Assembly: GCA_902785275.1 (NCBI GenBank)
Contig: CACZYB010000004.1
Location: 1-64,000 of the forward strand
DNA from: an uncultured Pseudomonadota bacterium
GTDB lineage: Bacteria > Pseudomonadota > Alphaproteobacteria > Rs-D84 > CACZYB01
Length of the DNA: 64,000 nt
Reading direction: 5' to 3'
A program made the position numbers and the translations under genes. The notes beneath the pieces were generated by a model. The model did not search any database and was not told where the DNA came from. It saw only the letters and a list, made by a program, of their open reading frames with translations. This document shows, one piece after another, positions 2,855 through 16,215 of the stretch. Numbering within the stretch: position 1 is the first letter of the stretch; each line of letters opens with the position of its first letter.

Positions 2855-3745
2855 CTATTTATTTTTGTTATCAAACTTTTGTCCGCATTTACCACAGAAT
2901 GAACATCCGTTACATATAAGTCTTGAGCCACAGGTTTCGCAATTTTTACTCCAATGTTTTTGATATATTTCTGTTTCAAACAATGTCTTTGGTAATTCAA
3001 GTTTTATATCTATTGGACGTCCCTTAAATTGAAGGCCGGATTTGTATGCCATTTCACTTTGAAGTCTTTTGTTTGGCATACGGTAAATTTTGCCATCCTT
3101 TTCAAAAATGGTTCCTGTTTCAATAAAGCAAAACATGGTGTTACTTTTTACACATTCATTGTAAAGATCTTTTACCCATTCATATTTGCACATACGGGAA
3201 CCATCATAATTTTCACCACCTGCAATAACTTGTTCTATTATTCCGGTTGAAAGATAATCTTTTAATGAAACAGGTGCAATAAATGGTGCAACCATAACAC
3301 CTTTATGTTTAAAGGGAAGATTAAATAAAATAGGAATTCGTTCATCGGCGCGTTTTTGAGTTTCTGTTGTTACACTGAAAAACACATTTTCCCAACCATC
3401 ACCCCAATCCGGTGGAAGGCAATCTAAAACACGTTCGGGTCTTTTTGTAAGAAGAGAAAATTCAACATCTGGGCGTTGTTTTATTATTTTCCAAATGTCT
3501 TTACGCCATTCATCTGCTTCGGTAAGGAAAAAATCAGATGTAAGGCAAACACGGATATGTTCACCACTTTTTACCTTGTATGAACCGTCTTTGTTTTTAT
3601 GAAGAGGGTAATTGAAATTATTTTTTACCTTATAGATTTTGGAGCCGTCTTGGTTACGTTGTTTATCCAAAAAATACATATAGCAATGGTTACAACCTTC
3701 ACTTTTTTTTATGCAACCATGCCATGGATTCCAGATATCGTGCAT
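2855..3745 (-). CDS. DUF5131 (phage Gp37/Gp68-like) radical SAM-type protein with C-terminal Cys cluster
   Basis: WNPWHGCxKxSEGCxHCY (CX6CX2C), SDFF, LLTKRPER, IAGGEN motifs; C-terminal CETCGSRLICNGCSFCGKC. Confidence 0.88.
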   Translation of the reverse strand: MHDIWNPWHGCIKKSEGCNHCYMYFLDKQRNQDGSKIYKVKNNFNYPLHKNKDGSYKVKSGEHIRVCLTSDFFLTEADEWRKDIWKIIKQRPDVEFSLLTKRPERVLDCLPPDWGDGWENVFFSVTTETQKRADERIPILFNLPFKHKGVMVAPFIAPVSLKDYLSTGIIEQVIAGGENYDGSRMCKYEWVKDLYNECVKSNTMFCFIETGTIFEKDGKIYRMPNKRLQSEMAYKSGLQFKGRPIDIKLELPKTLFETEIYQKHWSKNCETCGSRLICNGCSFCGKCGQKFDNKNK

Positions 3746-4235: not shown

Positions 4236-4264
4236 TTGACAAATTATTTTATTTCTATTATATT
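4236..4264 (+). promoter_or_regulatory. Sigma70-type promoter of the LysM gene
   Basis: TTGACA (4236-4241), 17 bp spacer, TATATT; the TTG used as ORF-track start is this -35 box. Confidence 0.6.
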
Positions 4265-4295
4265 TTTGTCAAAATCGACAAAAGAGGTGTTTACA

Positions 4296-5855
4296 ATGAA
4301 GAAAGTTAGCAAAAAGAAGTCATTAAATAAAGTATCAAAAATAATAATGAGGCTTATTTTAGCAGGTTTGTTGGTATCGACTGTTGCAAATAATGTTCAA
4401 ATTTCAAATATTAAGGAAAAACAGAAATCCGAAGATGAAAATATTGAACTTATCAATGAAAAAATTGAAAAGTATGAAAAACAGATTCAAATTATGATTG
4501 ATCATGAAGAGCTTCAGAATGAAAATGTTGGTAAGCTGATTACTCTTGTTGATAATATGAAAGCTTTGGTTGAAAATGAAAGTAAGCCGGTTGTTGTTGA
4601 AAATGTTTCTGAAAATGCAGAGGTAAAAAATTATGATTTTGTTTCTGATTCATTTATTTATAGTGTGCAAAAGGGTGATACTCTTTCAGAAATAGTTCGT
4701 GAATATTATGGAAAGTATTCTATCAATGCAATGAAGGCAATCGCTTTGGTAAATAAAATTCGCAATGTTAACGAATTGAAAGTTAATCAAGTTATAGAAA
4801 TACCTTCTGTTGAAAAAGTTAAGGTTATGAAGGATAATGGTGAACTTGAAAGTGTTAATCTTACAAATTGGTACAAGAAGAGTAATGTTATAGCTCCGGC
4901 AAAGACAGAAGATGTTGTTGAAGTTGAAGTAATTAAAGAAACTTCTGCACAAAAGGTTGAGAAAGTTTCAGTACAAGAAGAAACTTCTGCACAAAAGGTT
5001 GAGGAAGTTCCAGTACAAGAAGAAGTTCCTGCACAAAAGGTTGAGGAAGTTCCAGTACAAGAAGAAGTTCCTGTATCAAAGGTTGAGGAAGTTCCAGTAC
5101 AAGAAGAAACTTCTGCACAAAAGGTTGAGAAAGTTCCAGTACAAGAAGAAACTTCTGCACCAAAAGAAGAAAAAGCACCAGTACAAGAAGAAGTTGTTGT
5201 TACTCCGTTTGTTAATGAAAATTTGACTGAAGGTGAAAATGTGGAGTTTGAAGAGGTTGAAGAAATTCTTCCACAGATAGAAAAAATTGATGATACAGTT
5301 TTTGTTAATGATGAGGAAATTTCGGAAAATGCTAAACCTGAAGAATTGGTGGATTTAGAAGTAAAAGATGAAGAAATCGAACTTTCATCATCCATAGAAA
5401 ACTTTGATAACAGCAGATATGATGATGCATATTTCAAGGCTTTTGATTTAAATCTTAACTTTGGTAATTCATTAAGAAATGAAGAAAAAGTTTTGGATGA
5501 AACTGTACCTGTATATGAAAAAGTTGAAGATGAAGATGTGAATATTTCATCATCCACAGAAAGTTTTGATAACGGCAAATATGACGATGCATATTTCAAG
5601 GCTTTTGATTTAAATCTTAACTTTGGTAATTCATTAAAGGATGAAGAAGAAACTTCAAAAGTTTCTACACCTGTATATGAAGGGGTGGGAGAAGATGAAG
5701 ATGGTCTTTTCGATGAAGAAATCCTTAATGATTATAACGGAGAAATATTTTATGAAGAATCAAAAGATGATACCGGTGATGTTATAGAGAAAAAAGTTGA
5801 TGCGGACAAAGATATTTCTGATGTTATTGTTGCGTATGCTTCGAAAGTAAGATAA
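4296..5855 (+). CDS. Membrane-anchored LysM-domain protein with coiled coil and acidic repeat region
   Basis: RBS GAGGTG before ATG 4296; N-terminal basic and hydrophobic anchor; LysM motif YSVQKGDTLSEIV..YYG...IALVNKI...LKVNQVIEIP. Confidence 0.8.
   Translation: MKKVSKKKSLNKVSKIIMRLILAGLLVSTVANNVQISNIKEKQKSEDENIELINEKIEKYEKQIQIMIDHEELQNENVGKLITLVDNMKALVENESKPVVVENVSENAEVKNYDFVSDSFIYSVQKGDTLSEIVREYYGKYSINAMKAIALVNKIRNVNELKVNQVIEIPSVEKVKVMKDNGELESVNLTNWYKKSNVIAPAKTEDVVEVEVIKETSAQKVEKVSVQEETSAQKVEEVPVQEEVPAQKVEEVPVQEEVPVSKVEEVPVQEETSAQKVEKVPVQEETSAPKEEKAPVQEEVVVTPFVNENLTEGENVEFEEVEEILPQIEKIDDTVFVNDEEISENAKPEELVDLEVKDEEIELSSSIENFDNSRYDDAYFKAFDLNLNFGNSLRNEEKVLDETVPVYEKVEDEDVNISSSTESFDNGKYDDAYFKAFDLNLNFGNSLKDEEETSKVSTPVYEGVGEDEDGLFDEEILNDYNGEIFYEESKDDTGDVIEKKVDADKDISDVIVAYASKVR
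4938..5189 (+). repeat. Six tandem 42-bp (14-aa) coding repeats, consensus E(T/V)(S/P)AQKVEEVPVQE
   Basis: Units start at 4938, 4980, 5022, 5064, 5106 and 5148. Confidence 0.92.
5383..5681 (+). repeat. Two-copy 162-bp (54-aa) internal duplication containing YDDAYFKAFDLNLNFGNSL
   Basis: 5383-5475 nearly identical to 5545-5637; acctgtatatgaa at 5507 and 5669 (same 162 offset). Confidence 0.9.
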
Positions 5856-5922: not shown

Positions 5923-5999
5923 GACCTCGTAGCTCAGCTGGATAGAGCGACAGCCTCCTAAGCTGTAGGCCGGCGGTTCGAATCTGCCCGGGGTCACCA
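5923..5999 (+). tRNA. tRNA-Arg (anticodon CCT)
   Basis: Acceptor GACCTCG/CGGGGTC, D-arm GCTC/GAGC, anticodon arm ACAGC-CT-CCT-AA-GCTGT, T-loop TTCGAAT, encoded CCA. Confidence 0.97.
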
Positions 6000-6014
6000 A
6001 AAATTTTACAGTAT

Positions 6015-6027
6015 AATCAAATACTTA
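6015..6027 (+). promoter_or_regulatory. IHF-type binding site next to the att site
   Basis: AATCAAATACTTA matches WATCAANNNNTTR exactly, 15 bp after the tRNA CCA. Confidence 0.5.
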
Positions 6028-6362
6028 CAGTCGTTCAAAATGAACTGCATTTTTCTATCAAAAATCTCCGTTGCCGAATTGCACATAAATTCACGTAAAC
6101 AACCCTAGATTCTACCTTATGTTGACGTTTATTGATATAGTTTTCTCATTGCCGAATTGAATATAAGTGTTCATACAATACATGTTTTTCTTACGAAATG
6201 TCTGAATCCATTTCTCGTTAATTTTCTGCCATTTATATTAAGTTTTTATCATATTATTAATAATGGGTTAAAGCCTTCAACCCATTAATAAATCGTGAAT
6301 CTTTTATATAGTTAAATCAACCAAAGCAATGGTGCTTTGGTAACAATAAAAGGAAATAAAAA

Positions 6363-6581
6363 ATGATAAAATATTTAACTCAACAACAAGTTTCAGAAAT
6401 TCTTAACGTAAAAATTTCTACCCTCAACCACCACAGATGCACAAGAAACAAAAACTTCGATATGCCATATGTGAAAGTTGGACGTGTAATCTTGTTCCCA
6501 GAAGAAAAATTCTATGAATGGCTTCAAGGAAAAACTTTTACTCCAGAAAAAGTTGAAGCAGGAAAACCATTATTGGTTTAA
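6363..6581 (+). CDS. Excisionase-like / AlpA-HTH_17 DNA-binding protein
   Basis: YLTQQQVSEILNVKISTLNHHR...MPYVKVGRVILF...EWL pattern; RBS AAGGA; first gene after the tRNA att site. Confidence 0.8.
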   Translation: MIKYLTQQQVSEILNVKISTLNHHRCTRNKNFDMPYVKVGRVILFPEEKFYEWLQGKTFTPEKVEAGKPLLV

Positions 6582-6851
6582 TTAAGTTATCCGGTTATTC
6601 CGGGCAACTTTACATTTTAATGAGTTCATTTAAAACAATCATTAACTGAACGGTGAACATTGTTTCCAAAACATAATGCAAACGTTGCAGCCATTTTTTA
6701 TCTGTTTGATGCACATTAAACGGCTTATGCAACAAAAAAGTTACCACAAACAAAATAGCTAATAAAATCAATTGATACTGCATTTAAAAACCTCACTTTT
6801 TTGCAAATTAGAGAGGATTTTTTTGAAAATGTCAATTAAAATATTTTTATT

Positions 6852-7141: not shown

Positions 7142-7684
7142 TTAAATTAATTCAGCTATTTTTGTTTCAACGTCTTTCATATCAACCGTCGGTTCAAGGC
7201 GTTCAACCACTTCACCCTGTCGATTTACCAAAAACTTTGTAAAATTCCATTTGATGTCAGATTTCTTATCCCAATCTGGATCTGCCTTTGAAAGCATATC
7301 TGCCAATAAAGAACTTAATTTATGTTCACCAAATCCTTTAAATCCCTTTTGTGATTTTAGATAAGTATAGATTGGTAATTCGTTTTCACCATTCACATCT
7401 GATTTTTTCATCTGATTAAATTTTGTATTATAGTGTAGTTGGCAGAATTGATGAACTTCCTCATCTGTACCTGGTGTTTGATGACCAAATTGATTACAAG
7501 GTATATCAATAATTTCCAAACCTTTACCATGATATTTTTCATAAAGTTTTTCCAAATCTTCGTATTGAGGAGTAAATCCACATCCAGTAGCTGTATTTAC
7601 TATTAATATTACTTTACCTTTTAAATCCATTAGAGATAATTCTGTTCCATCAGATTTTGGAATTGAATAGTCATAAATTGTCAT
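7142..7684 (-). CDS. Glutathione peroxidase family (Cys-type, probably thioredoxin-dependent) peroxidase
   Basis: VNTATGCGFTPQY, PCNQFG, resolving Cys (FCQLHY), KWNFTKFLV. Confidence 0.93.
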   Translation of the reverse strand: MTIYDYSIPKSDGTELSLMDLKGKVILIVNTATGCGFTPQYEDLEKLYEKYHGKGLEIIDIPCNQFGHQTPGTDEEVHQFCQLHYNTKFNQMKKSDVNGENELPIYTYLKSQKGFKGFGEHKLSSLLADMLSKADPDWDKKSDIKWNFTKFLVNRQGEVVERLEPTVDMKDVETKIAELI

Positions 7685-8127
7685 TTTGATATCCTTACTT
7701 TATTAAGTTTAAATAATTTATCTCGCTCACGAACAAGCTCTTTATTCTTAAAAACATTTTCTTCGCCATGTTTTAATGCTTCTTCATAATAACGAATTTT
7801 AAAATCAAGTTTTTTCATAGTTTGTTTCAAAGCCTTAATTTCTTGCTGACATTTGATTTTTTGTTCCTTAAACATTTCAGCGCGTTCAACTAAACTAGAA
7901 TTACCTTTTTTTAACAGATTTATATAGTGTTTTATGTCTTTTAACTGAAGTCCTGTTGATTTAAGACACTCTAACATCATAAGCCAGTTTATATCTGCAT
8001 CTGTAAACTGACGTACACCTGATTTGGCTTTACTAACATTAGGAAGTAAACCTTCCTTATCGTAAAATCTTAAAGTATGGGTTGTTAATCCCATCATTTC
8101 TGCCACTTTTCCAATTGTATAAGTCAT
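7681..8127 (-). CDS. MerR family regulator, NmlR/AdhR subfamily
   Basis: MTYTIGKVAEMMGLTTHTLRFYDKEGLLPNV; W48 and Cys54 in WLMMLECLKSTG, as in NmlR; flanked by NmlR-like operators. Confidence 0.9.
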   Translation of the reverse strand: MTYTIGKVAEMMGLTTHTLRFYDKEGLLPNVSKAKSGVRQFTDADINWLMMLECLKSTGLQLKDIKHYINLLKKGNSSLVERAEMFKEQKIKCQQEIKALKQTMKKLDFKIRYYEEALKHGEENVFKNKELVRERDKLFKLNKVRISK

Positions 8128-8148: not shown

Positions 8149-8177
8149 AGAATAACCTAAAGTTCGCTTTAAGTCAA
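8149..8177 (-). promoter_or_regulatory. merR/gpx promoter with operator in a 17-bp spacer (autorepression-type)
   Basis: Minus strand TTGACT (8177-8172), 17 bp, TATTCT (8154-8149); imperfect palindrome CTTAAAG-CGAA-CTTTAGG. Confidence 0.75.
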
Positions 8178-8196: not shown

Positions 8197-8227
8197 TTGA
8201 CTTAGAGCTAACTCTAAGATGTAAAAT
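8197..8227 (+). promoter_or_regulatory. MerR-activated promoter: 19-bp spacer with NmlR/AdhR-type operator
   Basis: TTGACT (8197-8202), 19 bp, TAAAAT (8222-8227); perfect palindrome CTTAGAG-CTAA-CTCTAAG at 8201-8218. Confidence 0.88.
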
Positions 8228-8259: not shown

Positions 8260-8649
8260 ATGAAAGTATCATCAGTAATTGCTTTTATAATGACAATTTT
8301 AATAGGAGAAAGTGCAATGGCTATAACAGTGAATATTTATTATACAGGTGAAAACGGAAATGCTCGTAAATTTGCCGAAGAAATGGAACAAAGTGGTACA
8401 ATTGCAGCTATTCGTGCAGAAGAAGGAAATATAAAATATGAATATTTTTATCCTAAAAATGATCCAGAAACAATTTTATTGATTGATAGTTGGGACAGTC
8501 AAGAGGCTATTGATAAACATCATGCAACACCGATGATGGATAATATTACAGAATTACGTAATAAATATAATTTGCATATGAAAGTTGAACGTTATATTGA
8601 AGATACAAATGGAATACCAGAAAAGGATAAAAACTTTATTAAGAACTAA
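8260..8649 (+). CDS. Antibiotic biosynthesis monooxygenase (ABM) / putative quinol monooxygenase family protein
   Basis: IRAEEGNIKYEYF, ILLIDSW..QEAIDKHHATPMM motifs; short leader before MAITVNIYY. Confidence 0.85.
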   Translation: MKVSSVIAFIMTILIGESAMAITVNIYYTGENGNARKFAEEMEQSGTIAAIRAEEGNIKYEYFYPKNDPETILLIDSWDSQEAIDKHHATPMMDNITELRNKYNLHMKVERYIEDTNGIPEKDKNFIKN

Positions 8650-8658
8650 AAAATATTA

Positions 8659-9768
8659 ATGTTTGAGTATAAAATGGGAATGTGGATTGTAATAATGTTT
8701 GTTGGTTTGTTTTTTACTACAGTATCTTTACTGTACTTAAAAAGCATGGTTAAAAAATTTTTGCCAGTTAATGTTAAGAATAAATCTTTGATAAGTTCAT
8801 TGATAGTTGTTTCAATATTTAGTGTTATTGGAATTTCTCTAAATTTCATAAATGCAATAATTTGTGCAATATATTTTGCAATGATTTGGTGCATTTGTGA
8901 TTTAGTATTTGGCAGAATAAAAAAGTCATATAAACATTATTACGCAGGATGGGTTGCAACTATTTTAAGTAGTATTATCCTTTCTTGTGGTTGGTATTTA
9001 GATCATAATGTATGGAAGACTGAATATAACATTACTACACAAAAGAATGTTCAAAATCTTAAAGTTGCAATGTTTGCTGATTCACACTTAGGAACAACCT
9101 TTAATGCCGATGGATTTGCAAAACATCTTGAAACTATTGCATCAGAAAAACCTGATATATTGGTTATTGCAGGTGATTTTGTAGATGATGATACTACAAA
9201 AGAAGATATGTTAAAAGCAGTAAAGTATTTAGGTAAATTTAAAACTAAATATGGAATATATTTTGCTTTTGGTAATCATGACAAAGGATATTATGGGCCT
9301 GTTTATCGTGGATTTAGTGGACAAGATTTGATAAGTGAACTTGAAAAAAACAACATAATAATTTTACGAGATGAAATAAAAACTATTGCTGATAAGTTTT
9401 ATATTATAGGTAGAAAAGATTATTCGGTTGAACGTGAACAACATGGTAATCGTAAATCAATGTATGAACTTGTTAAAGGATTGGATAATAACAAGTATAC
9501 TATTGTTGTAGATCATCAACCAACAGATTATGAAAATCAAACAAAGTCAAATGTTGATTTAGTTTTATCTGGCCATACTCATGGTGGTCAACTTTTCCCA
9601 TTTAATAGTGTTGGAAAATGGATTGGCGCAAATAATTTGGTTTATGGACATGAAAAGAAAAACATTACTGATTTTATTGTAACTTCCGGTATTTCTGATT
9701 GGACAATAAAATTTAAAACAGGTACAAAGTCTGAATTTGTAATTATTAATATTAAGAAAGGAATATAA
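8659..9768 (+). CDS. Membrane-anchored calcineurin-like metallophosphoesterase (YkuE/YaeI-like)
   Basis: N-terminal TM helices; DSHLG, GDFVD, GNHD, HQP and SGHTHGGQ motifs. Confidence 0.9.
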   Translation: MFEYKMGMWIVIMFVGLFFTTVSLLYLKSMVKKFLPVNVKNKSLISSLIVVSIFSVIGISLNFINAIICAIYFAMIWCICDLVFGRIKKSYKHYYAGWVATILSSIILSCGWYLDHNVWKTEYNITTQKNVQNLKVAMFADSHLGTTFNADGFAKHLETIASEKPDILVIAGDFVDDDTTKEDMLKAVKYLGKFKTKYGIYFAFGNHDKGYYGPVYRGFSGQDLISELEKNNIIILRDEIKTIADKFYIIGRKDYSVEREQHGNRKSMYELVKGLDNNKYTIVVDHQPTDYENQTKSNVDLVLSGHTHGGQLFPFNSVGKWIGANNLVYGHEKKNITDFIVTSGISDWTIKFKTGTKSEFVIINIKKGI

Positions 9769-9769
9769 A

Positions 9770-11530
9770 ATGTACGATATTTTAAAAACAATAAATTCAC
9801 CATTAGATTTAAAAAAACTAAACTCTAATCAGTTAGAAGTTTTAGCATCAGATGTTAGAGAAGCATTATTTAATCGTCTAACTAAAATTGGAGGTCATTT
9901 TGGTCCTAACTTCGGTATTGTTGAAACAGAAATAGCAATGCATTATGTGTTTGAATCACCAAAGGATAAATTTGTTTTTGATGTATCTCATCAAAGCTAT
10001 ACTCATAAAATGCTTACTGGTCGAAGAAATGGATATATTGATGATAATTGCTTTAAGGAAGATTCTGGTTATACAAATCCAGAAGAAAGTGAACATGATT
10101 TATTTAATATTGGACATACATCAACATCTATATCTTTAGCATCAGGACTTGCAAAAGCTCGTGATTTAAAAGGTGAAAAATATAATGTTATAGTGTTAAT
10201 TGGAGATGGTTCACTCTCTGGTGGTGAAGCATTAGAAGCTCTTAATTTTGTTAGTTCAGATTTAAAATCAAACTTTATTATTATTGTAAATGATAATCAA
10301 CAATCTATTGCTGAAAACCATGGTGGGTTATATCAAAATTTAACTGAATTACGTGAAACAAAAGGAAAATCAGAAAATAATTTCTTTAAAACTTTAGGTT
10401 TGGATTATATATACGAAGAAAATGGAAATGATATACAATCTTTGATAAAGGTTTTTGAAAAAGTAAAGAATATAGATCATCCTGTTGTTGTTCATATAAA
10501 TACTCAAAAAGGTAAGGGATATAAACTTGCTGAAATAGATAAAGAAATATGGCATTGGCATATGCCATTTGATAGAGAAACTGGAAAAACAAGTATTTCT
10601 TTTTCTGGTGAAAGTTATACAAGTTTAACATCTCAATACATTATGGATAAAGCAAAACAAGATAAAGATTTTGTAATAATTACTCCTGCTATGCCAATGA
10701 CAGCTGGATTATCACAAGATTTACGTGAAAAACTTGGAAATCAATATGTCGATACAGGTATTGCTGAAGAACACGCTGTTGCTTTTGCTTCTGGAATTGC
10801 TAAAAATGGAGGAAAACCATTATTGGTAACAAATGCAACTTTTATACAACGTTCTTATGATCAGATTTCTCAAGATGTTTGTATTAATAATAATCCAGTA
10901 ACAATTTTACTTAATTGTTCATCATTTGATAGTTTAACAGATGTAACACATTTGGGAATTTTTGCAATTTCTGCATTTTCTAATATTCCTAATTTAGTAA
11001 TGTTGGCTCCTACTTCAAAAGATGAATATTTAAATATGCTTGATTGGTCTGTTGAACAAAAAGATCATCCAGTTATGATTTTGATGCCAGGTAATGCAGT
11101 AACATCTCGTAATACAGAAAATAATTTTGATAAAATTAATACCTTTAAAATGGAACAATTTGGTGAAAAAGTTGCCATATTAGCATTAGGCGATTTTTAT
11201 CAAAAAGGTGAAGAGTTATCAATTCAAATTGAAAATACTTTTGGTTTTAAACCTACATTAATTAATCCAAGATTTGCAAATGGATTGGATCAAAAAATAT
11301 TAAAAGATTTACAAAAAAATCACAATCTTGTTATTACATTAGAAGATGGTGTTTTAGATGGTGGATTTGGAGAAAAGGTTGCAAATTTTTATTCTACAAG
11401 TGACATGAAAGTTAAAACCTATGGTCTTAAAAAAGAATTTTATGATCGTTATAATCCACAGGAACTTTTAAAACAACTTGGTATGACAACAGAGCAGATT
11501 ATTAATGATATAAACAATTTAATTAAGTAA
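9770..11530 (+). CDS. DXS-family ThDP-dependent enzyme (atypical 1-deoxy-D-xylulose-5-phosphate synthase homolog)
   Basis: GGHFGPN, FDVSHQSYTHKMLTGR, GHTSTS, GDG...NDN ThDP motif, GIAEEHAV, TFIQRSYDQ, LEDG; acceptor-phosphate residues are substituted (see findings). Confidence 0.88.
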   Translation: MYDILKTINSPLDLKKLNSNQLEVLASDVREALFNRLTKIGGHFGPNFGIVETEIAMHYVFESPKDKFVFDVSHQSYTHKMLTGRRNGYIDDNCFKEDSGYTNPEESEHDLFNIGHTSTSISLASGLAKARDLKGEKYNVIVLIGDGSLSGGEALEALNFVSSDLKSNFIIIVNDNQQSIAENHGGLYQNLTELRETKGKSENNFFKTLGLDYIYEENGNDIQSLIKVFEKVKNIDHPVVVHINTQKGKGYKLAEIDKEIWHWHMPFDRETGKTSISFSGESYTSLTSQYIMDKAKQDKDFVIITPAMPMTAGLSQDLREKLGNQYVDTGIAEEHAVAFASGIAKNGGKPLLVTNATFIQRSYDQISQDVCINNNPVTILLNCSSFDSLTDVTHLGIFAISAFSNIPNLVMLAPTSKDEYLNMLDWSVEQKDHPVMILMPGNAVTSRNTENNFDKINTFKMEQFGEKVAILALGDFYQKGEELSIQIENTFGFKPTLINPRFANGLDQKILKDLQKNHNLVITLEDGVLDGGFGEKVANFYSTSDMKVKTYGLKKEFYDRYNPQELLKQLGMTTEQIINDINNLIK

Positions 11531-11545
11531 CGAAAGGTAATATAA

Positions 11546-12112
11546 ATGAAGAAAGATATAAGTAAAAGTTTAATTATGGCTCCAATGCCTGTATTAATCA
11601 TTGGAACTTATGATGAAAATGGAATTCCAAATGCAATGAATGCTGCATGGGGTGTGCAATCTGATTACGAACAAATCACCATATTCCTTGGTAAGCATAA
11701 AACCACCGATAATTTACAAATCAACAATGGCTTTACCGTAGCTTTTGCAACAAAGGAAACTATGATTGCATCAGATTATTTCGGTATGGAAACTGGTGCA
11801 AGAATTAACAAGATTGAAAAAGCAGGTATTACTGCAACAAAGTCAAAACACGTCAATGCTCCAGTATTTGAGGAATATCCTGTAACAATAGAATGTGAAA
11901 TTGCCGATATGGTTGAAGAAACAGATGGTTATCGTTTGGTTGGTCAGGTCGTAAATGTGATTGCAGATGAAAAAGTACTTGATGCAAAAGGCAATATTGA
12001 TTTAGGTAAAATGAATATTCTTTGCTACGACAGCGCCTCCCATTCTTATCGTGAAATTGGAAACATTGTTGGCCAGGCTTTCCATGCAGGATTAGCAATC
12101 AAAAATAAATAG
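11546..12112 (+). CDS. Flavin reductase / flavoredoxin family protein
   Basis: PMPVLIIGTYDENGIPNAMNAAWG, SDYFG, VNAPVFEEYPVTIEC motifs. Confidence 0.88.
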   Translation: MKKDISKSLIMAPMPVLIIGTYDENGIPNAMNAAWGVQSDYEQITIFLGKHKTTDNLQINNGFTVAFATKETMIASDYFGMETGARINKIEKAGITATKSKHVNAPVFEEYPVTIECEIADMVEETDGYRLVGQVVNVIADEKVLDAKGNIDLGKMNILCYDSASHSYREIGNIVGQAFHAGLAIKNK

Positions 12113-12116
12113 CAAT

Positions 12117-12144
12117 AGGGGTGTGTGAAACACCCTTTTATTTT
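12117..12144 (+). terminator. Intrinsic terminator of the ABM-to-flavin reductase operon
   Basis: gggtgt-gtgaa-acaccc hairpin followed by a T-rich tract. Confidence 0.7.
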
Positions 12145-13832: not shown

Positions 13833-14707
13833 ATGCATGATATTTGGAACCCATGGCATGGTTGCATAAAAAAGAGTGAAGGCTGTCAACATTGCTTTAT
13901 GTATTTTTTTGGATAGGTAACGAAATGTTGATGGATCTAAAATATACCGTGTTAAAAAACAACTTTGATTACCCTTTACACAAAAACGTTGATGGTTCGT
14001 ATAAAATTAAAAGTGGTGAATGTTTACGTGTGTGCTTAACTTCGGATTTCTTTTTGGAAGAAGCAGATGCATGGTGTGATGAAGTGTGGAATATTATCAA
14101 AAAACGCCCAGATATCGGATTTTATCTTTTAACTAAACGACCAGAAAGAGTTGTCGAGTGTTTACCGAAAGATTGGAGAGATGGTTGGGATAATGTGTTT
14201 TTTTCTGTAACGGCGGAAAATCAGTTAAGAGCAGATGAACGCTTGCCAATTTTAATAGATTTACCTTTCAAACATAAGGGGGTAATGACAGCACCGTTTA
14301 TCGGACAAATCAGTTTACAAGAATGGCTTAAAACGGGACAAATAGAACAAGTAGTAGCTGGTGGTGAAAATTACGATGGTAGCAGAGTTTTAAAATATGA
14401 ATGGGTAAAATCTCTTTATGAAGAATGTAAAGCGAATAATGTGATGTTTTGTTTTATAGAAACAGGAACAAAGTTTGAAAAAAATGGCAAAATTTATACT
14501 ATGTCAAACAAAAGATTACAAAGCAAAATGGCATATAAGTCTGGTTTACAGTTTGAAGGAAAGCCTATTAAATGGAATTTATATAAACCTCAAAATGAAC
14601 TTTTTGATGATGGGTGGTATCAAAAACATTGGCGAAAGAACTGTGAAACTTGTGGTTCAAGACTTATTTGTAACGGTTGTTCAGATTGCGGTGAATGTGA
14701 GAAATAA
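13833..14707 (+). pseudogene. DUF5131 radical SAM-type pseudogene, paralog of 2855-3745
   Basis: ATG 13833 MHDIWNPWHGCIKKSEGCQHCFMY; +1 slip in the T-run 13904-13910, TAA at 13918-13920 where the paralog has Gln, second +1 slip in the A-run near 13954-13959; the rest is collinear with the intact copy. Confidence 0.88.
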
Positions 14708-14935: not shown

Positions 14936-14966
14936 AAAAAGCCGGCTAATGCCGGTTTTTCTTTTT
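14936..14966 (+). terminator. Intrinsic terminator (possibly the original tRNA-Arg terminator)
   Basis: aaaaaGCCGGC-taat-GCCGGTttttcttttt. Confidence 0.7.
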
Positions 14967-15033
14967 GAATTTTATTTTCCTTGCAAGTAGTTTTTATGGG
15001 AGTAAAATATCTATGAGAGAAAAGAAATTAAAA

Positions 15034-15612
15034 ATGAAAAAATATGTTATATTACTTTTGTTAAATATGTTTACATTATCATGTTTAGCAGATACAAGTA
15101 TTAATGAAAAAAAATATTTAATCATAAATTATTCAAAGGCTTTTGGAAGAGGTGGAGGAAGTATGGTTTCTTTATCTGATTTATCTTACAAAAGGAATTA
15201 TGAGGATAAAAGAATAGAAAGTATTAATTATTATTCAGAGGTAGATTGTAGTAACAAAATTAGTAATTATATAAAAGAAGAAATATCAAGTGATACGGAA
15301 AACGGAAAAACTTTTATATATTATTATACCCCAGACATTTATACAGTGTATTTTTGTATTGAAAAAAACATTTGGAATAGCATTTACGAAAATAAAAAAT
15401 TAATTGAAGAAGATAAACAAGATGATGATTATTATGTTGGTCAAGAAAATGTTTACAAAGATTTAGATGATTTTACTGAGAAAATGAAAAAGTGTGGGTT
15501 AATGCATAAAATTGATGCAGATTATTTACCAATACCAGAAACTCCAGTTATTTGTGATAAATATAATGAAAACAATCCAATTCCAACCAAAAAAATAAAG
15601 AATTTTTATTAG
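15034..15612 (+). CDS. Hypothetical exported protein, paralog 1
   Basis: Signal peptide MKKYVILLLLNMFTLSCLA; C-terminal half about 96% identical in DNA to the next gene. Confidence 0.75.
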   Translation: MKKYVILLLLNMFTLSCLADTSINEKKYLIINYSKAFGRGGGSMVSLSDLSYKRNYEDKRIESINYYSEVDCSNKISNYIKEEISSDTENGKTFIYYYTPDIYTVYFCIEKNIWNSIYENKKLIEEDKQDDDYYVGQENVYKDLDDFTEKMKKCGLMHKIDADYLPIPETPVICDKYNENNPIPTKKIKNFY

Positions 15613-16215
15613 ATTTATTGGGGAAATAATATGAATAAAAAAACTTTAATATTAATAATTTGTAGTATATTCTTATTTTCGTGTTTTGTTAATGCAAGTA
15701 ATGATAATGAAAAAAAATATATAATTGCGAATTTCGAAATTGGATTCGGAAATGGAGGAAGTAGTGGTGTATCCATAGAAAGATCGGAATTTACAGAAAA
15801 TGAAGAAGAAAAAAAAATAGAAAATATAAACTATTATACAAAAAATAATTGTGTAAAAAAGATCAATGACTATTTAAATAAAACAAATGTTAAGAATTCT
15901 GAAATTGGAAAAACTTTTATATATGATTATACCCCAGACATTTATACAGTGTATTTTTGTATTGAAAAAAACATTTGGAATAGCATTTACGAAAATAAAA
16001 AATTAATTAAAGAAGATAAACAAGATGATGATTATTATGTTGGTCAAGAAAATGTTTACAAAGATTTAAATGATTTTACAGAAAAAATGAAAAAGTGTGG
16101 TTTGATGCATAAAATTGATGCAGATTATTTACCAACACCAGAAACTCCAGTTATTTGTGATAAATATAATGAAAACAATCCAATTCCAAGCAAAAAAATA
16201 AAGGATTTCTTCTAG
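15304..16215 (+). repeat. 309-bp direct repeat (15304-15612 and 15907-16215)
   Basis: About 13 mismatches counted by eye over 309 bp; offset 603. Confidence 0.9.
15631..16215 (+). CDS. Hypothetical exported protein, paralog 2
   Basis: Signal peptide MNKKTLILIICSIFLFSCFVNA; shares the EKKY.I.N...FG.GG motif and the C-terminal half with paralog 1. Confidence 0.78.
   Translation: MNKKTLILIICSIFLFSCFVNASNDNEKKYIIANFEIGFGNGGSSGVSIERSEFTENEEEKKIENINYYTKNNCVKKINDYLNKTNVKNSEIGKTFIYDYTPDIYTVYFCIEKNIWNSIYENKKLIKEDKQDDDYYVGQENVYKDLNDFTEKMKKCGLMHKIDADYLPTPETPVICDKYNENNPIPSKKIKDFF

Follow-up and report, generated by a model that had tools for sequence, protein, structure and literature searches.

The third gene of an operon in the window, i.e. 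the whole stretch of 64,000 nucleotides analysed here, was found to encode a DXPS-like ThDP enzyme that is very unlikely to be a working DXS. The protein is probably an acetyl carboligase acting on a neutral carbonyl. We give about an even chance to the fuller reading, in which it is a pyruvate-dependent carboligase for non-phosphorylated carbonyls and is predicted to do the detoxifying in an aldehyde-stress operon of the NmlR/AdhR type. The DXPS-like subfamily is already established and has a solved structure (9KPQ), and the window's gene is, judged from its sequence, a pocket variant of it; the putative NmlR/AdhR-type control of the operon is the element added beyond the known subfamily. The annotated features are listed in Table 1.

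Table 1. Positions of the DXPS-like gene, its altered pocket, and the operon and regulator features in the window.
Feature	Position	Strand	Basis
Glutathione-peroxidase-family gene behind the regulator	7142..7684	-	Pfam GSHPx
NmlR/AdhR-like MerR regulator with Cys54	7681..8127	-	Best PDB matches H. influenzae HI_0186 structures, E 9e-32
Second, divergent operator-like dyad (1 mismatch) with -35 box before the regulator	8156..8177	-	Dyad search
MerR-type promoter TTGACT, 19-nt spacer, TAAAAT; NmlR/AdhR-type dyad at 8201-8218	8197..8227	+	Sequence
ABM-domain protein, first operon gene	8260..8649	+	Pfam ABM
Metallophosphoesterase with hydrophobic N-terminus, second gene	8659..9768	+	Pfam Metallophos; 1-nt gap to the DXPS-like gene
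DXPS-like ThDP enzyme (PRK12315 subfamily), 586 aa	9770..11530	+	PRK12315 profile, 9KPQ match, fold
Remodelled acceptor pocket: N355 (10832), R361, C383 (10916), T390-D391 (10937-10942), H394, P440-G441 with R478 deleted	10832..11092	+	Alignment and codon positions
Flavin-reductase-like protein, last gene	11546..12112	+	Pfam Flavin_Reduct
Terminator-like hairpin closing the operon	12117..12137	+	Consensus match only

Among the NCBIfam models, PRK12315 (NF008968) ranks first for this protein with 857.8 bits against a cut-off of 510. The dxs models TIGR00204 (483.4 bits, cut-off 465.95) and PRK05444 (631 bits, cut-off 395) are also passed and close relatives carry DXS as their name, so the automatic label would be dxs. 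An earlier reading made from the sequence alone had warned that such a label would be misleading, and we concur, as the dxs cut-offs are passed yet no DXP consumer was found in the genome. In sequence matches to the PDB, 9KPQ scores 730.7 bits against 298-330 bits for the full canonical DXS entries. The structure predicted from 46 relatives (pLDDT 87.4) was likewise matched first to 9KPQ by both Foldseek and VIA-align (Z 46.8). This entry, released on 2025-08-20, is titled 'A ThDP-dependent enzyme belonging to the DXPS-like subfamily', and a Bacteroides finegoldii protein is near-identical to it (1248 bits). Text searches found no literature mentioning 9KPQ, PRK12315 or 'DXPS-like', and none on DXS together with B. 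thetaiotaomicron, ThDP and glyceraldehyde. A total of 7989 scored candidates were matched, not all of which belong to the DXPS-like subfamily, and one Bacteroides member falls in a 90% cluster of 8178 sequences.

Residues are numbered after E. coli K-12 DXS, taken from NC_000913.3, followed by the position in the window's protein. On the cofactor and donor side the alignment shows H49/H43, H80/H74, D152/D146, N179/N174, N181/N176, K284/K247, H299/H262, E370/E333, F395/F358, R398/R361 and H431/H394 to be kept, which covers the ThDP/Mg motif and all of the catalytic residues H49, H80, H299, E370, R398 and H431. This agrees with the sequence-only reading, which had listed E370, R398, H431, the H49 motif and GDG..NDN as retained. 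The GAP-phosphate site formed by Y392, R420 and R/K478, together with the network residues R99 and D427, is absent, with N355, C383, a deletion, N93 and T390 found in the respective places. Three of these changes (Y392 to N355, R420 to C383 and D427 to T390) had been proposed earlier and are borne out, and the change of R99 to N93 is an additional loss on the acceptor side. A proposed replacement of R478 by G441 does not hold, as R478 sits in a one-residue deletion where G441 pairs with G479 and N442 with N480; the gapless alignment at an offset of 37 described in that reading is thus correct up to P477/P440 and fails beyond it. G428 is replaced by D391, a new acid that adjoins T390 and lies one position past the lost D427.

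In canonical DXPS the GAP pocket reportedly consists of Y392, R420 and R478, and the KM for GAP rises to 1.4 mM on R478A substitution (PMC11019550). A mutant of the R420 equivalent in D. radiodurans DXPS is reported to have 0.1% efficiency, with a KM for GAP similar to that for unphosphorylated glyceraldehyde, while D430A (the D427 equivalent) retains 40% efficiency and E. coli Y392A and Y392F remain active (PMC5851014). Since mutants at the last two positions keep much or some of their activity, our argument rests on R420 and R478; the weight placed earlier on Y392 and D427 was too great. A phosphate-like density has also been described as bound by the equivalents of Y392, R420, H431 and R478 (PMC9068908), three of which are gone in the DXPS-like protein whereas H431 is kept as H394. 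The retention of the cofactor and pyruvate residues together with the loss of the GAP site gives indirect support to the earlier proposal that the ThDP chemistry is intact and that the acceptor is non-phosphorylated.

The control alignment comprised 144 proteins, namely 119 of 150 representatives (the other 31 were dropped for a length outside 540-700 aa), 19 close relatives, four plasmid proteins, the window's protein and E. coli DXS, on which the tree was rooted. The window's protein falls inside a 54-member clade (support 0.998) and, within it, in a separate subclade (20/20, support 1.0). Inside the clade R/K420 is found in 1 of 54 members, the D427-G428 motif and R/K478 in none and Y392 in eight, against 85, 89, 83 and 89 of the 90 proteins outside, respectively, while the catalytic residues are retained in 51-54 of the 54 members. 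These counts indicate that the loss of the GAP site is a trait of the subfamily and not a one-off decay. An acid at the 428 position, D391 in the window's protein, is present in 43/54 clade members and 0/90 proteins outside, and R560, a new conserved basic residue that would weigh against the favoured reading if it compensated for the lost arginines, occurs in 20/20 members of the window's subclade and in none of the 90 proteins outside the clade. The window's protein carries the full clade signature derived in the present analysis (short linker, S73, Y215, N220, D391, no R420 or R478).

The inter-domain linker, already recognised as shorter in the sequence-only reading, spans 14 residues, compared with 46 in E. 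coli DXS. It is not diagnostic, and we rejected it as a sign of changed function, as 14 of the 90 proteins outside the clade have a linker of at most 20 residues and removal of the linker loop from M. tuberculosis DXPS is reported to have barely altered activity (PMC9068908). A pseudogene or an assembly artefact was also rejected. The reading frame is full, purifying selection was observed (dN 0.13-0.16 against dS of 1.9-2.4 or saturated in six pairs), and contigs about 95% identical from two other studies (X2 records 14-15 and X3 record 26) span the gene. The RNA run X18 yielded only short pieces at a depth below 6. In one relative (L079:6001-7733) the DXPS-like gene is split, in that assembly, between one frame of 278 codons and another of 318.

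The host genome (G000; 1.05 Mb, 95.7% complete) contains the DXPS-like gene as its only DXS-family gene. Searches of it for DXR, IspF, IspG, IspH, HMG-CoA reductase, ThiG and PdxJ, with positive controls, found none of them. The check for a canonical dxs or a mevalonate pathway elsewhere in the genome, as called for in the sequence-only reading, thus gave neither a second DXS-family gene nor HMG-CoA reductase. An IspA-like match was also not found in this genome. Given these absences, and with DXR missing from every one of the 61 genomes searched in the order, uptake of isoprenoids by the lineage is a possibility. The host genome encodes pyruvate kinase and a transketolase, in keeping with the favoured reading of the DXPS-like gene. 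Thiamine pyrophosphokinase, looked for by itself, was found in none of 21 genomes, the host included, which counts against that reading.

The gene was probably acquired horizontally, to judge from the sequence searches: DXR was found in 0/61 and a DXS-family gene in only 2/151 genomes of the order, and a DXS-family search of 40 relatives returned weak matches only. The second DXS-family gene among the 151 genomes (L133, G186:C19) belongs to a genome of another family, has other neighbours and is probably a separate acquisition. The DXPS-like gene lies downstream of a tRNA-Arg(CCT), which is followed by a 72-codon HTH_17 (excisionase-like) ORF from 6363 (window 5923-6584, just upstream of the cassette); the two may mark an old integration site. 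Other features were also observed in the window. The region is flanked by a pair of DUF5131 (phage Gp37/Gp68-like) paralogs, one on each strand (2855-3745 and 13892-14707), and a LysM protein (4236-5855) contains acidic repeats of 14 residues in an internal series. At 14965-16215 lie two paralogous ORFs in tandem, of 215 aa (without a Pfam match) and 194 aa, whose C-terminal halves are almost the same.

The genomic distribution of the gene bears on a further explanation, namely that it encodes a low-efficiency DXP synthase or a maker of unphosphorylated 1-deoxyxylulose for later phosphorylation. Genome-wide searches were carried out for 50 of the 62 carrier loci, many of them incomplete MAGs, and a separate dxs was called when it scored higher than the DXPS-like gene with E <1e-150 (our own threshold, set on the score alone). 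Of the 50 genomes, 16 have DXR and 19 have such a separate dxs; 26 have neither and five have DXR without a canonical dxs. Besides these five, and the dxs HMM cut-offs that the protein passes, this explanation is favoured by the Intestinibacter-type genomes G081, G085 and G144, which have DXR (and, in G081 and G085, IspG) with the DXPS-like gene as their only full-length DXS-family member, so that residual DXS activity is possible. In the family of G081, however, where all 81 genomes have DXR and 74 a canonical dxs, the DXPS-like gene is carried as an extra by 17 of the 74, judged by a truncated profile match. Among the seven genomes without canonical dxs, three have the DXPS-like gene only and four have neither gene although DXR is kept. 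The DXPS-like gene is therefore not a consistent substitute for dxs. In all five dxs-less genomes examined, a clean loss of dxs is seen between PAP2 and tlyA. Together with the lack of a DXP consumer among the genes found in the host genome, these observations make residual DXS function very improbable for the window's protein.

Two groups of genomes stand out in these searches. Five Peptostreptococcaceae-type genomes (loci L134-L138 in G154, G161, G132, G081 and G104) have no dxs at the PAP2-tlyA site but keep DXR, with IspG seen in G081; four of the five are without a DXS-family gene above the threshold. Eight small clostridial MAGs (G065, G066, G067, G071, G073, G084, G086 and G090) were observed to have a high-scoring dxs together with the DXPS-like gene, with no DXR found.

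The genes of the operon, in the order ABM, metallophosphoesterase, DXPS-like and flavin reductase, are separated by gaps of 9, 1 and 15 nt. The operator in front of the operon has the same two arms as that of H. influenzae NmlR (PMC5001606 supplement), and a promoter with a 17-nt spacer is predicted in front of the divergent regulator at 8177-8149. The regulator scores 96.7 bits against the NCBIfam NmlR model, below its cut-off of 175, and its Cys54 is aligned with that of HI_0186. This cysteine is reported to be needed for the formaldehyde response of NmlR-type regulators (PMC5001606, PMC4776306). Regulators of this type without an aldehyde phenotype are also described (PMC4776306), which speaks against a role in aldehyde stress.

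A generic promoter scan with spacers of 16-18 nt gave matches at the level of chance (38 vs 41). A more specific rule, fixed after the first matches had been seen (TTGAC, 19-nt spacer and dyad within 300 nt upstream), was satisfied in 12/60 relatives, 0/28 canonical dxs genes and 1/1227 background windows, and spacers of 17, 18 and 20 nt under the same rule gave 0, 2 and 0 matches among the 60 relatives, respectively. A stricter operator match was found in 10/60 relatives, 0/30 canonical dxs genes and 3/639 background windows. The promoter matches include C. acetobutylicum pSOL1 (CA_RS19740), where a neighbouring Cys54 MerR gene (CA_RS19745) is divergent, and an E. faecium plasmid; some of them are kin (L050/L051/L058 and L066/L070/L087), with about seven lineages left after merging. 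The promoter is absent directly upstream in 48 of the 60 relatives, including the Bacteroides gene closest to 9KPQ. In the literature, no link between dxs and NmlR/AdhR was seen among the matches listed by a search too broad to show that the link is unpublished.

An AdhC-type dehydrogenase (ADH_N, PF08240) and an aldo-keto reductase were not found in the host genome. Because the promoter is of the NmlR type and the usual dehydrogenase was not found, removal of aldehydes is the simplest purpose for the operon, and the operator points to a route of aldehyde removal that forms carbon-carbon bonds. In the proposed mechanism the regulator would sense carbonyl or thiol stress via Cys54 and turn the operon on. 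As in DXS, ThDP would add to pyruvate and CO2 would be released, leaving the enamine, which would then attack a neutral carbonyl that D391 and H394 may help to orient. The predicted products are acetol from formaldehyde, 1-deoxyxylulose from glyceraldehyde and, from a ketone, a tertiary acyloin as formed by ADS from 3-oxoDCA. A broader proposal, which we regard as tentative and short of an even chance, is that enzymes of the DXPS-like subfamily, controlled by NmlR/AdhR, serve gut anaerobes widely as an aldehyde sink that needs no glutathione. Formaldehyde, methylglyoxal and carbonyls like them would be capped with pyruvate-derived acetyl in place of the action of AdhC, and the bile-acid reaction of ADS would be a side or derived one. 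If this were true, the varied pockets of the subfamily would imply many unrecognised acyloin metabolites.

The neighbours of the DXPS-like gene in 63 loci (62 and the window) include flavodoxin (19), FMN reductase (12), MerR (10), ABM (9), alpha/beta hydrolase (9), CMD-cupin (9), aldo-keto reductase (6) and flavin reductase (6). The flavodoxins, FMN reductases, CMD-cupins and aldo-keto reductases among them are in keeping with the favoured reading. The abundance of flavin proteins, one of which adjoins the gene in the window, would also suit an enzyme whose enamine is oxidised instead of being ligated to carbon, with O2, quinones, flavodoxin or nitroso compounds receiving the electrons or the acetyl. 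DXPS is described as accepting other aldehydes, nitroso compounds and O2 (bioRxiv 10.1101/2025.03.03.641193), a breadth that fits the favoured carboligase and, through the oxygenase and nitroso reactions, enamine oxidation too. In addition, the Cys54 equivalent can reportedly be S-nitrosylated (PMC5001606), and R99 and D427, the holders of the pre-decarboxylation intermediate, are lost here. However, these flavoproteins are generic cargo of stress cassettes and are also found where the DXPS-like gene is absent. In a genome of the same genus (G013), which has no DXPS-like gene, this regulator with its operator precedes a flavodoxin-like gene, so the cargo varies and the link is not a fixed one. 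Moreover, the sole reaction reported for a probable family member is a carbon-carbon ligation (PMC13602198). We therefore consider oxidation of the enamine unlikely.

That reported reaction is the basis of another explanation, in which the window's protein is an acetylase dedicated to the ketones of bile acids or steroids and would convert pyruvate and a 3-oxo-bile acid to a 3-aceto bile acid. The model is ADS (3-acetoDCA synthetase) of B. ovatus, described in two reviews, with structural work, as a ThDP enzyme that joins acetyl derived from pyruvate to 3-oxoDCA at its ketone and thereby builds a new bile-acid skeleton (PMC13008668, PMC13602198). From its title, date and Bacteroides origin we infer that 9KPQ is probably ADS. 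The primary study of ADS is said to be that of Ding et al. 2025, Cell 188:6012. The window's protein is 56% identical to a Bacteroides protein near-identical to 9KPQ, shares with it the loss of R420 and R478 and the presence of D391 and R560, and has related DNA in animal gut metagenomes. On the other hand, its pocket differs from the 9KPQ type at several places, and 11 of the 63 loci bear titles of rumen, reticulum, omasum or abomasum, ruminant stomach compartments that lie upstream of bile entry. Members of the subfamily are also present in C. acetobutylicum and food lactobacilli, and the only match to a short-chain dehydrogenase, from one query, resembles FabG beside FabD. As the identity of 9KPQ with ADS is itself indirect, we consider a dedicated bile-acid function rather unlikely, if somewhat less so than enamine oxidation, and favour the carboligase acting on neutral carbonyls. 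Thousands of genes in gut microbes carry the label 'dxs', and one branch of them probably makes no DXP; pathway reconstructions and surveys of DXS as a drug target are misled as a result.

Compared with canonical DXS (2O1S), the window's protein has the same three-domain fold (Z 37.8, rmsd 2.5, 523 aligned residues; 31% identity) and the same cofactor and pyruvate residues; it differs in the loss of R99, Y392, R420, D427 and R478 and in the host genome, where no DXP-using pathway was found. With the NmlR system of H. influenzae and the AdhR system of B. subtilis, the operon shares a sensor-less MerR regulator with Cys54, the operator arms, the 19-nt spacer and the divergent layout, whereas the adhC-estD cargo is replaced by the ABM, phosphoesterase, DXPS-like and flavin reductase genes. 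The closest likeness is to 9KPQ, with 55-56% identity, a TM score of 0.93 and an rmsd of 2.5 over 580 aligned residues, the short linker, the R478 deletion, the acid at 428 and the full ThDP set in common. The pockets differ at Y392 (N in the window's protein, Y in the 9KPQ type), R420 (C, W), D427 (T, N), V301 (H, R) and the 346-350 loop, most relatives having Y or F at the position of C383, and the window's gene has the NmlR-type promoter whereas the Bacteroides gene is without it. Finally, the chemistry predicted for the window's protein is the same as that described for ADS, i.e. the use of ThDP and pyruvate on a non-phosphorylated carbonyl.
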